DNA of 64,000 nt from Eledone cirrhosa (taxonomy: Eukaryota), in NCBI GenBank assembly GCA_964016885.1, contig OZ024741.1, forward strand, positions 172,050,001-172,114,000. The letters are read 5' to 3'. Made by a program: the position numbers and the translations under genes. The notes beneath the pieces are model-generated. The model worked only from the letters and a program-made list of their open reading frames with translations. It made no database searches and was not told the origin of the DNA. This document shows, piece by piece, positions 20,968 through 59,588 of the stretch. Numbering within the stretch: position 1 is the stretch's first letter; the number at the start of each line of letters is the position of its first letter.

Positions 20968-21343
20968 TATTATTCAAAATATTAACAAATGAAAAATATT
21001 CTCATAATCAAAATATATACTTTATTATATATATTTCAGAGGTACTGTGTTGTTTTTTCAGTACGTCCTCATCATGACTACCAATACTGGAATTGAATAA
21101 TCAAAACCGTAGCGGTATGTCATATATCAAATCATATATTTTGTCTGATGAACACGTACTGAAAAAACAACACAGTACCTCTGAAATATATATAATAAGG
21201 TATATATTTTGATTGAGAATATGTTTCATTTGTTAATATTTTGAATAATATTAAAAACTCCAGGAAAACCTCCTATCGAGTGCTTCTAATCTATTGTAAA
21301 ATTGTATTTATTGAGTAATCAACGAACCATACTAATCTTTCGT
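20968..21343 (+). mobile_element. ORF-less fold-back PLE-pLTR mini-insert with HHR
   Basis: 20968-21074 is an inverted copy of 21146-21250; ~95-nt tail; (TA)n on both sides; homologous to 32120-32495. Confidence 0.85.
21137..21202 (+). ncRNA. Type I hammerhead ribozyme (partly decayed)
   Basis: TATTTTGT-CTGATGA-ACA C GTACTG..CAGTAC C TCT-GAAAT-ATAT-ATA^-ATAAGGTA. Confidence 0.7.
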
Positions 21344-22193
21344 TATATGTATATATATATATATATATATATATATATATATATATATATATATATATAT
21401 ATATATATATATATATATATATAGCCACAACATAAGCTAAATAGAGTTGCAACTACTGTAACCATATAACCAAGTACTGCTGAGGATAAGCTTTTTTTTC
21501 TCTTACGTGCATCTACCATATCCATGGTAAGCCTTTTCTTTTTCACTCTCCACTTCCCAGAACAACGCCCTGCTTTCCGTCCCAAATTCAGTGAACCTCA
21601 GTAACTAGTTTGGCATGTAGAATCTCAATACGGTTTCGTTTATGTTTCATATGTAGATGATGTGTTGTGAACTTATTATTCACCATATGCTTGATGATGG
21701 TAGTTAAATGTTTGATTCTGTGATGCAGGTTAATGATATCTGTCAGTGTTATCCATATGAGTGTCACGAAGTTATAGCAGTTGTGTGCAAGCAGGAATTA
21801 AATAAATTATATCAATAAGTCTCATCAAAAGGTTCCATATACTTTCTGGTGTTGTCATCAGCAACTTTTAACATAAATGGGACTGGCTTTTCCCCTGTCA
21901 CATAAAGAAGGGCCTGACATTCAACATCAGCCTAGAGAAATTGGCAAAATTGGATTTTAAAAGGTTTTACGTTATATATACTCTACAGATTTCACAGACA
22001 TCTGTCAGATCCGCATTTATGAATATATGTTTGTATGTATGTTCTTCTGGTTTTATAATTTCACAAATCTTTTCCCCAGAAGAACATACATACATATATT
22101 CATACATACGGATCCGACAGATGTCTGTGAAAGTATGTATGTATGTATGTATGTATGTATGTATGTATGTATGTATGTATGTATGTATGTATG

Positions 22194-22625
22194 TTCTTCT
22201 GGTTTTATAATTTCACAAAGTTTTACCAATAGAGAGAGAGTCGGTTTCTAACATAGACACAAGACTCTCTCATTGGAATGTACACAACATCAACTAGGTA
22301 GATATGTATGTATGCATGCATGTGTAGATATGGATGTTATTGTATGTGTGGATGTATATGTTTTGTGTTGTATATGTGCATGTGTATATGCTTTGTATCT
22401 GTACATGTGTATATGCAGTTATTAGATGCAACATTTTTGGAATGTTTTACATATTTTTACTGTTTCCTAACTAGTTGTGTTCTTTCTGTTCCTGTGAAGC
22501 CTAGCTTCTCAAGATTTGTATTGAGGCAGTTACTAACATATCCCAGTGCCCCAATAATCACAGGCATAAATCTGAAGGTGTAATCAGGGTGGAGTATCTG
22601 CAGATTTCTCATCAGTTCTGCATTA
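22194..22625 (-). mobile_element. 3' end of a restriction-like-endonuclease (R4/Dong-like) LINE, embedded in (ATAC)n
   Basis: AELMRNLQILHPDYTFRFMPVIIGALGYV C-terminal motif, then a 3' UTR; (TATG)n on both sides. Confidence 0.7.
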
Positions 22626-22722
22626 TGTATGTATGTATGTATGTATGTATGTATGTATGTATGTATGTATGTATGTATGTATGTATGTATGTATGTATGT
22701 ATGTATGTATGTATGTATGTAT

Positions 22723-23290
22723 GTCGGGTCACTCTTGAGTGCTACTGGTAATATGTAACCCAGTACAACCTGTCGCATGTTCGGGTCATCGGCGACTAAA
22801 CCAGCAATTCCACGTAGTTTACTTGGTGAGGAGGGTGATTTTGGACACCCTGCAAGACAAAAATCAAAACCTGACAAAGGGCAGAAGAACTCATAAGAGT
22901 CAACGGCCATCGAAAAGTGTACATAGGTATGTATATGTATATGTGTATATAAATGGGTGCATGTGTATGTATATGCGCGGTTAAACCACTGGGAGTGAAG
23001 GAATCCTATCCTTTGTCAGGGCATTCTTCTAGGAGAAGGCAACTCAGGAAACTGGGATTACTCCGATATAAAACCTGCGGCTCAGTAGTTAACGATGATG
23101 TTGATCTTTTCTTCTTTTCGGGTTATAGCTACTGTCGCTCAGAGAGTGGGATTGGCTCAGTGCACAGTCTTTCCTCACTTTAAAAAATATCTTCACGCAC
23201 AGCATTGCACGATAGAATTAATTAATAATTATCAATAATGTTATATCGTGCAATGACCACACTCGATAACGAGGGGGCAGCCCTCATCAT
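22723..23290 (+). mobile_element. ORF-less RTE-derived bipartite element, subfamily A
   Basis: 5' GTCGGGTCAC..GGCGACTAAAC, CTAGGAGAAGGCAACTC motif, 3' ACTCGATAACGAG..GCAGCC; second copy at 56157-56772. Confidence 0.7.
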
Positions 23291-23359
23291 GTATGTATGT
23301 ATGTATGTATGTATGTATGTATGTATGTATGTATGTATGTATGTATGTATGTATGTATG

Positions 23360-23640
23360 TTAAGAGAGTGGGACTGGCTTTGTGCAGTGCCTTTGCTCAC
23401 TATAAAAGCTTCACGGCACAGGCATTGCTTTATATCTGGAGATCTCTCTGCACTTGTCGTCACATGGTACCATGGGCCCAGCACTATGTGTCAATAATTG
23501 TCACAAGTGTAGTGTTTGTACCAGAATTTTCAAGTCGCTGGCTGGACTAAAAAGTCACACTCGTTCAGCGCATCGGTAGGAGTTCTCCTACATGGATATA
23601 AAGTAGTGGCCGTACTCGAAAACGAGTTGGCAGCCACCAT
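23360..23640 (+). mobile_element. 3' part of RTE-derived element subfamily B
   Basis: Near-identical to 57581-57860; encodes the remnant CHKCSVCTRIFKSLAGL (Zn-finger-like LINE C-terminus). Confidence 0.8.
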
Positions 23641-23656
23641 GTATGTATGTATGTGT

Positions 23657-24050
23657 GTCAGGTCGCTCACGTGTGCTACGGGTAACATGTAACCCAGCAC
23701 AACCTGTCTCATGGTCGAGTCGTCGACGACTAAACCGGCAATCGAACAACTTGCTTGATGAGGAGGGTGATATTTGCACACCCTGCTGGATGAAATATAA
23801 GATCTGGCAAAGTGCGGAGGGACTCAGCAGAGACAACGGCCATCCAAATAGTACTTTACTTTTTCACCTGGGAGTGAAAGGTCCCCCAGCTGTTCTCACA
23901 ACACCTTTCTAAGAGACGGAAGCACTAAAAAATTGTGGCTTCGGAAGCATCCGATGATGTTGACCAGTTCTCCTTTTCGGGTTTTGTTTTCGATGCTCAG
24001 AGAGTGGGATTGGTCGAGTACAAGGCTTTTCCCCACTTAAAAAACCTTCA
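23657..24050 (+). mobile_element. Diverged RTE-derived element, 5' part
   Basis: GTCAGGTCGC..GTAACATGTAACCCAG..GACGACTAAACCGGCAA shared with subfamilies A and B. Confidence 0.65.
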
Positions 24051-57860: not shown

Positions 57861-58111
57861 ATAATATATGTATGTATATATATATATATATGTATATATA
57901 TATATATATGTATGTATATATATATATATGTATGTATATATATGTATGTATATATATGTATGTATATATGTATATATATGTATGTATATATATATGTATA
58001 TGTATATATGTATGTATATGTATGTATGTGTATATATATATATGTATGTTTGTATATATATATATATGTATGTATGTATATATATATATATATATATATA
58101 TATATATATAT

Positions 58112-58244
58112 ACGTTATTCCGGGTTGAATCGGAGGTAACCACAGTAAGTAAGGTACTCAATACATAGCAGAGTATAACAGTTTTAATATAGATGAGATT
58201 CTACAGGACTAGAACTGTTTCATTCATTAGAAATCATCAGGAAT
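58112..58244 (-). mobile_element. pLTR fragment with HHR (59452 family)
   Basis: Reverse complement of 59455-59588. Confidence 0.85.
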
Positions 58245-58469
58245 ATATATATATATGTATGCATGTATATATATATATATATGTATGTATATATATATAT
58301 ATATGTATGTATATATATCTATGTATATATATATATATATATGCATGTATATATATATATATGTATGTATATATATATATATGTATGTATATATATATAT
58401 GTATGTATATATATATATGTATGTATGTATATAATGTATGTATGTATGTATATATATATATGTATATAT

Positions 58470-59075
58470 GTCAGTTCACCAGTTGGTGCTACTGGTAACA
58501 TGTATTCCAGTACAACCTGTCCCATGGTCGGGTCGTTGGCGACTAAACTGGCAACCCCAACAAGGTTTCTTGGTGAGGAGGGTGACTTTGGACATCCTGC
58601 AGGATTAAAAACAAAACCTGTCAAAGGGCAAAGGAGCTCTTAAGAGTCAATGGCCATCCAAAATCACCGGGAGAGATGACCCCTTAGCCTTTGTCAAGGC
58701 AGAATTCTAGGAGAAGGAAAACTCTGATATAACACCTGCAACTCTGATGGTATCCAATGATGTTGACTTGTTCTTCTTTTTGGTAAATATCATCTTGGTT
58801 AAGAGAGTGGGACTGGCTTTGTGCAGTGCCTTTGCTCACTATAAAAGCTTCACGGCACAGGCATTGCTTTATATCTGGAGATCTCTCTGCACTTGTCGTC
58901 ACATGGTACCATGGGCCTAGCACTATGTGTCAATAATTGTCACAAATGTATTGTTTGTATCAGAGTTTTCAAGTCGCTGGCTGGACTAAAGTCACATTCG
59001 TTCAGCGCATCGGTAGGAGTTCTCCTACATGGATATAAATTAGTGGCCATACTCGAAAACGAGTTGGCAGCCACC
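58470..59075 (+). mobile_element. RTE-derived bipartite element, subfamily B
   Basis: Near-identical to 57252-57860. Confidence 0.8.
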
Positions 59076-59158
59076 ATATGTATGTATATATATGTATGTA
59101 TGTATATATATATATGTATATATATATATATGTGTATGCATATATATATATATATATA

Positions 59159-59326
59159 TATTTATTAAAATAACAGATTAAAGTTTAAGCAAAGCAGCGA
59201 TTCTTTGCTTAAACTTTAATCTGTTATTTTAATAAATATCTGCTCTACGGTTCTTATATATTTGATATATATTTATTCTTATCGAGCCCTCTTTGGATTT
59301 TAGTCTTCAAATTTATTATTATTACT
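59159..59326 (+). mobile_element. Very short fold-back pLTR insert (5270 family)
   Basis: 59159-59194 is an inverted copy of 59204-59239, followed by the tail. Confidence 0.85.
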
Positions 59327-59369
59327 ATATATATATATATATATATATATATATATATATATATATATA

Positions 59370-59588
59370 TAGATGAGATTCTACAGGACTAGAACTGTTT
59401 CATTCATTTGAAATCATCAGGAATCTCCTGAAATCATCAGGAATCTCTGAGGAGATTCCTGATGATTTCAAATGAATGAAACAGTTCTAGTCCTGTAGAA
59501 TCTCATCTATATTAAAACTGTTATACTCTGCTATGTATTGAGTACCTTACTTACTGTGGTTACCTCCGATTCAACCCGGAATAACGTA
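59370..59588 (+). mobile_element. Fold-back mini-insert with an HHR on both arms
   Basis: 59370-59428 is an inverted copy of 59451-59510; ~19-bp junction duplication; tail; (TA)n flanks. Confidence 0.9.
59452..59504 (+). ncRNA. Type I hammerhead ribozyme with stable helix III
   Basis: GAGATTC-CTGATGA-T TTC AAAT GAA T-GAAACAG-TTCTAGTC-CTGTA^-GAATCTC. Confidence 0.88.

Follow-up and report, generated by a model that had tools for sequence, protein, structure and literature searches.

Twin bulged hairpins at the tail boundaries of Hydra-clade Penelope-like elements in Eledone cirrhosa, a candidate signal for positioning reverse transcriptase

Where the one-sided tail and head-to-head arms of Penelope-like elements (PLEs) come from has been a question for two decades; a single element has been reconstituted so far, and its RNA signal is unmapped. 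The insertion form itself is already known from earlier reports (PMC8557442, PMC3846280, PMC4209133): tandem copies that are partial, a copy inverted at the 5' side and a tail on one side only. The question is raised anew by a 64,000-nt stretch of the 3.0-Gb genome of the animal Eledone cirrhosa (assembly GCA_964016885.1, contig OZ024741.1, positions 172,050,001 to 172,114,000, forward strand; hereafter the window, in whose coordinates unprefixed positions are given). The window is rich in (TA)n microsatellites and in broken reverse transcriptase (RT) and GIY-YIG frames, and contains many short inverted repeats with hammerhead cores. The combined results provide good support for a conserved, covarying cis element, a bulged hairpin, that sets the boundary between inverted arm and tail in Hydra-clade PLEs, and a second copy of this hairpin marks the tail end. 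Element class, tail and internal initiation were known before; the twin bulged hairpin signal is the new part.

A first-pass annotation of the window had listed ten RCTC...GAGY motifs downstream of ribozymes, in otherwise dissimilar tails, and had proposed them as a signal for RT binding, internal initiation or endonuclease (EN) nicking. All ten motifs are present (Table 1). Their tails are dissimilar only in part, as the ten sites represent about eight families, with 84% identity between sites 21257 and 32406 and 98% between 25891 and 50491. The link to ribozymes also stands for some sites: five of the ten (21257, 32406, 42867, 59525 and 27302) have a canonical same-strand hammerhead core 78-113 nt upstream, and at 25891 and 50491 a variant core is located at -72. 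The best that 53056 offers is a weak match at -204, and no core is present on that side at 51975 and 54109. The inverted arm stops just before the motif at 21257, 32406, 42867, 51975 and 59525, in keeping with the annotation. An arm of this kind was not found at 27302 or 53056, the nearest arm at 50491 ends elsewhere, and the plus-strand arm at 54109 (to about 54275) has almost nothing in common with the tail side. The proposed ceiling of 14 nt for the gap between arm and motif is exceeded at 59525, where the gap is 12-17 nt, and the fold-back at 25668 is an exception, as had been noted, with both ends at the tail end.

The position of the motif was then evaluated in a set collected blind to it. 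A DNA search of the genome with 42656-42960 as query returned no candidates, and 10-kb stretches were sampled instead. Microsatellites were masked in the window and in 145 such stretches of the E. cirrhosa genome (G000; 1.514 Mb in total), and inverted pairs were retained when one end lay at a microsatellite and the other was followed by 25-260 nt, yielding 123 fold-backs in 50 tail families. In 55 of these fold-backs, corresponding to 19 of the 50 families, the motif begins 0-21 nt past the arm end, compared with 2.2% of random windows (109/5000; binomial p 4e-19) and 0-7 families in each of 17 other 22-nt bins; the strict descriptor used here was refined on the same fold-back data. The correlation between arm ends and motif proposed earlier is thus borne out, and several further families carry, by eye, variants that the descriptor misses (a bulge of 1 or 3 nt, a mismatched pair, or a start more than 21 nt away). 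Family medians of the distance from arm end to motif are at minimum 2-9 nt, or 6-10.5 nt when ambiguous TA bases are counted as target, with a range of 1-17 nt for single copies. A loose descriptor applied genome-wide discriminated too weakly by itself from shuffled DNA (347 real matches versus 212-240), indicating that position carries the signal. The 59525 family is abundant, with 1942 pattern matches at several per copy, and its arm ends scatter at 5-6 or 12-17 nt (L269 and L282).

The stem described in the first-pass annotation exists, but the description was too short. Above a 4-bp base, two nucleotides (UH) bulge out on the 3' strand, and an upper stem follows, giving the full motif 5'-NCUC-(upper stem)-loop-(upper stem)-UH-GAGN-3', with a variable loop and a total span of 19-118 nt. 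The CUC/GAG core is almost invariant. Covariation in the RCTC/GAGY base is limited to the outer pair, which varies between G-C, A-T and T-A (paired in 71/80), and to one family with GTTC/GAAC; the covariation resides mainly in the upper stem above the bulge. When 77 metagenomic leader instances from 44 loci were anchored on the CTC and GAG sequences only, the first upper pair was Watson-Crick in 62 with a bulge of 2 nt, compared with 2, 5, 14 and 16 at 0, 1, 3 and 4 nt, and the first bulge base was T in 74. Upper pairs U1-U3 were Watson-Crick in 62, 48 and 41 of the 77, against 36, 22 and 20 in permutations that ignore relatedness among the sequences (each p 1e-4). The third upper pair, which the descriptor does not demand, is Watson-Crick in 15 of 19 families from the E. 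cirrhosa genome, where 4.7 would be expected. MAFFT did not align hairpins with variable loops, limiting tool-based pair counts to nine equal-length hairpins that had been picked as hairpins beforehand, and the anchor-based tests were judged fairer. An Rfam scan of the window gave no family at any hairpin site among the 150 listed of 172 matches (E up to 1); these were miRNA-like matches on simple repeats, all under the gathering score, and one hammerhead. The latter (55488-55532, plus strand, E 0.0047, 5-bp stem II) is the sole Rfam hammerhead among the matches listed and is not tied to any listed motif site.

The proposal of a cis signal that fixes the arm/tail boundary was sound but incomplete, as the second copy at the tail end had been missed. 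Among 14 families with read-through copies, hairpin 2 begins 5-14 nt past the tail end in 12, is partial in one and is lacking in one. Eleven of these families were found retrospectively, including a minus-strand tandem at 53593-53492; one closes with a U-G pair and several with an unpaired outer base. Three window families (42867, 54109 and 59525) were checked prospectively using search patterns without hairpin sequence, and in the 42867 family hairpin 2 was encountered at 6 nt, followed by the start of a Hydra open reading frame (ORF). Tails in the present set are 65-160 nt long.

The same arrangement is found in relatives from other animals. Alignment of 42 Hydra-like proteins (41 of 109 matches plus that of L018, described below) led to the retrieval of 78 metagenomic loci. 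The strict descriptor gave 38 sense and 2 antisense matches in their leaders (15.6 kb), 11 versus 1 in the trailers (26.3 kb) and 13 versus 6 in the ORFs (158.6 kb). Among 51 leaders of at least 130 nt, 23 hold two hairpins and 3 hold three. The spacing is 54-82 nt in 24 of 25 metagenomic pairs, the usual positions being near -110 and -48 relative to the ATG. The distance from the end of hairpin 2 to the start codon is 15-60 nt. A covariance model built from nine metagenomic hairpins ranked ten true sites first among its 13 matches in the window, namely seven of the ten annotated sites and three further copies, while missing the three long-loop sites; on 46 of the 78 loci, none from the training set, the model gave 79 matches, 73 of them on the coding strand. 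Comparison of trailers with leaders produced 28 alignments, of which 13 stop at a contig end and one is a tandem read-through. Of the 14 informative metagenomic 3' ends, 12 have their break between -4 and 6 nt ahead of hairpin 1 or hairpin 2, L152 and L197 being the exceptions. Inspection by eye of the six Hydra consensus sequences published in File S7 of PMC8557442 revealed the exact motif in the tails of one coral and one sea-cucumber family, and another sea-cucumber consensus shows it twice in its leader. Judged from these sequences, the bulged hairpin is conserved across marine animals; a search of viral contigs found no relative.

Assignment to the Hydra clade was based on the signature RWK, DKT, FD[VI]xMG, CxCX5C linker, CxxC and CxH given by Craig et al. 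2021 (PMC8557442). L018 (family 19) encodes a single 785-aa ORF with RT and C-terminal GIY-YIG EN, containing RWK, DKT and, as the divergent FDVTMG-like RT4 motif of the clade, FDITMG; FDVSMG occurs at window 7083-8042, and RW[K/R/I] is present in three read-through ORF starts. The CxCX5C linker, CxxC and CxH are found in L018 and at window 41050 without CCHH, which is the Hydra type, and a single Cys lies inside the GIY-YIG core by eye. ORFs in the window match the Pfam GIY-YIG family. The hammerhead cores at five window sites and the two variant cores correspond to the Hydra-type hammerhead in the pseudo-long terminal repeat (pLTR). (TA)n adjoins both arm and tail ends, as in Hydra-clade insertions, although the fold-back filter itself demanded a microsatellite at one end. 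Ten motif-bearing families are tied to Hydra-type ORFs by these protein motifs, and the remaining families are without an ORF in hand. The motif was not seen in Nematis-like and Neptune-like families, assigned by eye from EN motifs, nor in other families with tails of about 40-65 nt, and the possibility that it is general to all PLEs was discarded for that reason. With clade membership read from protein motifs, the hairpin appears restricted to Hydra-clade elements and their non-coding derivatives. L018:3088-5442 belongs to a young Hydra family with intact ORF, all 150 scored genome matches being 96-100% identical over the first 181 aa, and L018 carries two near full-length copies arranged head to head.

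Seven stretches of 549-880 nt, from five families, retain both hairpins but have no match to 41 Hydra proteins, no ATG frame longer than 89 aa and no hammerhead core. Three of the seven are tandem units of 549 nt (L135:6176-6724), 595 nt (L095:4710-5304) and 616 nt (window 53084-53699, minus strand). Since both hairpins persist in units where no such coding sequence or ribozyme was found, they travel with mobility rather than with translation or the ribozyme. The 549-616-nt units suggest non-autonomous parasites of Hydra elements, unlike the hammerhead-bearing retrozymes. Hammerhead cleavage was rejected as the origin of the ends, as cores lie 66-113 nt upstream and were not found in five families.

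A short UA-alternating stretch precedes the hairpin. TAT or ATA occurs at offsets -8, -7 and -6 in 0.36, 0.52 and 0.35 of 61 metagenomic hairpins, compared with 0.02-0.17 from -40 to -9, and in 0.37, 0.53 and 0.32 of 19 families from the E. cirrhosa genome; this count uses no junction data. TA microhomology of at least 3 nt between junction and target was observed in 13 of 17 families, against 0.12-0.23 expected (two-sided null). L227, a full-length family-19 copy, starts with (TA)n exactly at the first such stretch (site 1, beside hairpin 1), and a few bases from the beginning of the hairpin are duplicated there; this copy may represent a self-insertion at the element's own UA site.

We propose that the hairpins position the element's RT in the sense RNA, with the (TA)n primer annealing at the adjacent UA stretch where copying would begin, a reading that we consider about 70% probable from the sequences. 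RT binding with internal initiation appears to be the best reading of the motif among the functions first suggested, and EN nicking is less likely. The module consists of a short UA-alternating stretch, a spacer of about 4-8 nt and the bulged hairpin, present twice in the 5' leader, and insertions end at the two UA stretches. The element's protein, as a dimer, would bind each hairpin on one tandem read-through sense RNA, and its endonuclease would nick both strands of the palindromic (TA)n target. Each nicked 3' end would anneal to the UA stretch beside one hairpin and prime cDNA internally; a start at site 2 would copy the tail with hairpin 1, and a start at site 1 would yield no tail. The two cDNAs would then join head to head at variable 5' truncation points, producing the inverted arm. 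The ORF is seen on either the tailed or the tail-less arm, implying that either cDNA may be the long one. With one start per hairpin, tail length would equal hairpin spacing, which would explain why tails are one-sided. The junctions make it likely that RT starts on RNA at both tail boundaries. A bolder version, which we hold only tentatively, is that UA site, fixed spacer and bulged hairpin, doubled, form the complete cis code for Hydra-clade retrotransposition, with a dimeric telomerase-like RT bound to both hairpins of one RNA and priming two cDNAs with the two (TA)n strands at a break; the code might then suffice to mobilise any RNA upstream, as the non-coding parasites suggest, and other PLE clades might have twin signals of their own.

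The hairpins could instead act in DNA, extruded in single-stranded or donor DNA and guiding a GIY-YIG EN nick just upstream when the intermediate is resolved. Resolution by EN has been proposed as the origin of the tail in PMC8557442, the D. virilis EN is cited in PMC11167929 as requiring tail sequence for recognition, the TA-like sequence next to the cut is of the EN target type, and L227 starts with (TA)n at site 1. However, the motif is strand-asymmetric, with its one-sided bulge and G-U combinations outnumbering A-C by 10 to 2 at upper pairs U2-U3, and loops of up to 110 nt fit a transcript better than duplex DNA. In the only reconstituted PLE, moreover, tail ends coincide with RT start sites on RNA (PMC11167929). 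Action at the DNA level is thus unlikely, though it is the best placed of the alternatives.

Slightly less probable still is a role for the hairpins in directing cleavage of the RNA, or formation of its 3' end, just upstream of themselves, after which two RNA 3' ends would be copied by ordinary 3'-end target-primed reverse transcription. The ends do keep a constant, short distance to a structure whose base is conserved, as is seen with processing signals. Two independent RNA species would, however, predict many symmetric insertions. Of 107 fold-backs, a few of which are the same insertion listed twice, 74 have their two ends at different sites and 12 have a symmetric form, the other 21 being too ambiguous to class; the asymmetric form, an inverted 5' arm with one-sided tail, accounts for 74 of the 86 classed. 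The TA microhomology additionally indicates primer annealing, and internal initiation has been shown for a Poseidon element (PMC11167929).

It is improbable that TA microhomology and the TA preference of EN alone set the ends while the hairpins do other work, such as translational control ahead of the ATG, beside AU-rich linkers. The microhomology is real, and hairpin 2 lies close enough to the start codon for such a role. Nevertheless, of the internal ends that abut TA in 18 family references, 68 lie no more than 14 nt ahead of hairpin 1, and 2 lie elsewhere; the count covers site 1 only and includes the copies that defined the references. The same references hold 199 other TA runs of at least 3 nt, of equal or greater length in 16 of 18. 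Microhomology alone is therefore insufficient, and the retention of both hairpins by five non-coding families likewise argues against it. Chance, or functionless common descent of a few families, is very improbable: the ten window sites do collapse to about eight families and the loose descriptor often matches shuffled DNA, but position-specific enrichment, compensatory changes and the ranking of ten true window sites by a nine-hairpin metagenomic model stand against it.

Several observations weigh against RT positioning by twin hairpins. Twelve fold-backs are symmetric, 21 of the 107 were left without a class, and some arm ends lie as far as 17 nt from the hairpin. Two of the three prospective checks were less clear than that of the 42867 family: the 54109 family has base stem and bulge at 9 nt with a weak upper stem, and the 59525 family has no canonical hairpin 2, yet many of its copies end there, with only a 4-bp GCAC/GTGC stem 5 nt downstream. 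Some non-TA tail continuations are without hairpin 2, flank and read-through being indistinguishable in these. No hairpin was found in 14 of the 51 metagenomic leaders, many of which look 5'-truncated or unrelated by eye, and 11 leaders have one; 3 of the 6 published consensus sequences have just degenerate or unclear copies by eye (File S7 of PMC8557442). The relatedness ignored in the permutations counts in the same direction. Strand bias is weak at interior positions (G-U 8 versus A-C 4), and for the isolated hairpin the modelled fold is the predicted minimum in 47/80 sense and 35/80 antisense cases, leaving the strand evidence for action in sense RNA modest.

The elements studied here share protein motifs, the pLTR hammerhead, (TA)n targets, tandem and inverted insertions and the one-sided tail with the Hydra-clade PLEs of Craig et al. 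2021, but the tails reported there are 30-40 nt (PMC8557442). The words 'stem-loop' and 'hairpin' are absent from the main text of that article, and the twin hairpin passes unremarked in its own consensus sequences. No description of a twin bulged hairpin was found in the literature searched, in the wording of PMC8557442, PMC3846280 and bioRxiv 10.64898/2026.07.22.740005 in their accessible parts, or in Rfam; the scope excluded Terminon and older subscription papers on the D. virilis tail, which may describe related structures.

According to Frangieh et al. 2024 (PMC11167929), the tail of Poseidon PAc of Anolis is bounded by two internal RT starts, both strands are nicked in AT-rich DNA, a dimer is predicted, the hammerhead is dispensable and RNA sequence beyond the starts, on their downstream side, is needed. 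The pair of starts, the nicking of both strands, the prediction of a dimer and the dispensability of the hammerhead agree with the mechanism proposed here. However, the Poseidon start sits in an AC-rich stem-loop, reportedly not homologous to the target, and that text describes no conserved or repeated positioning motif; in the RNA of its Fig. S1 the CUC/UH-GAG motif is not present by eye. Two short GGC...GCC hairpins about 40 nt apart are visible in the same RNA and are a possible analogue of the twin signal.

Telomerase, whose RT is of a sister group, offers a working analogy, as it anneals a repeat primer to a 2-5-nt alignment stretch inside a longer RNA, next to a protein-binding helix with a conserved base (ciliate helix II; PMC4993307). 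The TAT/ATA peak at -8 to -6 and the microhomology would be the counterpart of the alignment stretch. The boundary helix of telomerase RNA, however, lies 5' of the template and stops synthesis (PMC4993307), whereas the Hydra hairpin lies 3' of the start, is doubled, and would let copying run on through pLTR and ORF for hundreds to thousands of bases, without a 5' boundary helix or reiterative synthesis. The epsilon element of hepatitis B virus (HBV) is likewise a bulged hairpin that recruits an RT and fixes an internal start, RT recruitment being putative in the present case; in HBV, protein priming is templated from a 6-nt bulge (PMC10534774). The Hydra bulge has 2 nt, ends fall 2-10 nt 5' of the hairpin base and not in the bulge, and the primer would be target DNA. 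By analogy, the twin hairpin would work like an RT-positioning hairpin, belonging to neither the HBV epsilon nor the telomerase family. In pairs of long and short interspersed elements (LINEs and SINEs) such as L2 and CR1, 3' stem-loops are RT-recognition hairpins kept by non-autonomous partners, with short target microhomology. [quoted passage not shown]

Table 1. Hairpins and associated features in the window
Feature	Position	Strand	Details
Hairpin 1, Hydra-clade element	42867..42906	+	ACTC / 6-bp upper stem / TC bulge / GAGT
Inverted arm	40881..41085	-	100% copy of 42656-42860; adjoins (TA)n; ends 4-6 nt before hairpin 1
C-terminal GIY-YIG endonuclease	41050..41565	+	5'-truncated element; CxCX5C linker, CxxC, CxH
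Minimal hammerhead core	42762..42800	+	In pseudo-LTR, 105 nt upstream of hairpin 1
Tail, 99 nt	42861..42959	+	In G000 read-through copies hairpin 2 starts 6 nt past its end, then Hydra ORF start
Hairpin 1	21257..21281	+	Mismatch at second upper pair; fold-back 20971-21247; tail end 21349
Hairpin 1	32406..32431	+	Family of 21257; 3-nt bulge; palindromic fold-back 32123-32396; tail end 32495
Hairpin 1	51975..51998	+	This copy carries a mutation at the first upper pair; palindromic fold-back 51837-51966; tail end 52046
Hairpin 1	59525..59543	+	Palindromic fold-back 59372-59507 stops 12-17 nt upstream; family without canonical hairpin 2
Hairpin 1	58156..58174	-	Another copy of 59525 family
Hairpin 1	27304..27323	-	Hammerhead core 104 nt upstream; tail end 27240; inverted arm not found
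Hairpin 1	54111..54128	-	Plus-strand inverted arm (54178 to about 54275) containing a hammerhead core; tail end 54053
Hairpin 1	25891..25935	+	GCTC/GAGC form, long loop; fold-back 25669-25976, both ends at tail end
Hairpin 1	25711..25756	-	Within inverted arm of 25668 exception
Hairpin 1	50491..50535	+	Family of 25891
Hairpin 1	59242..59287	+	Family of 25891; palindromic fold-back 59162-59235 stops 2-6 nt upstream
Hairpin 1	53058..53083	-	7-bp upper stem; non-coding family; tail ends at (TA)n, 52986
Hairpin 1 of upstream tandem copy	53674..53699	-	
Hairpin 2	53492..53593	-	GCTC / 7-bp upper stem / TT / GAGC; starts 5-9 nt after downstream copy's (TA)n end point
Non-coding tandem unit, 616 nt	53084..53699	-	Both hairpins; no Hydra protein similarity; hammerhead core not found

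Other elements were noted in the same material. The window contains a LINE-type RT at 16772-19908 (plus strand; Pfam RVT_1) with an endonuclease-like frame upstream, and additional broken RT-like frames at 43676-45107 and 11939-12943. A Nematis-like element with a 56-nt tail occupies 32507-35750; in a copy at L026:4269-4440 the tail is 171 nt long and TGCTAAAC recurs close to each of its two possible ends, hinting at a twin signal of another kind. Short-tailed families (40-66 nt; L019:4849, L109:9025, L142:6874 and L005:7043) share GTGT...ACAC or AC-rich hairpins, and one is attached to a Neptune-like ORF (L130). Families 4 and 21 (L092:4201-4400, L129:3151-3350 and window about 54800-55400) form a tailed fold-back class with a long perfect hairpin at the tail end, and their read-through sequence contains the octamer ATGCAAAT, which we take to be small nuclear RNA-promoter-like.

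A short, duplicated motif shared across phyla, at a measurable distance from both ends, makes the question of the tail directly testable and provides a possible connection between how PLEs are primed and how telomerase aligns its template. The twin hairpin can also serve in annotation to recognise Hydra elements and the non-coding parasites that go with them. Should the module prove sufficient in cis, it would constitute a minimal cargo signal for a microsatellite-targeted RT system, and if the doubled-module reading is true, it would be the mobile-element counterpart of the template-plus-anchor unit of telomerase.

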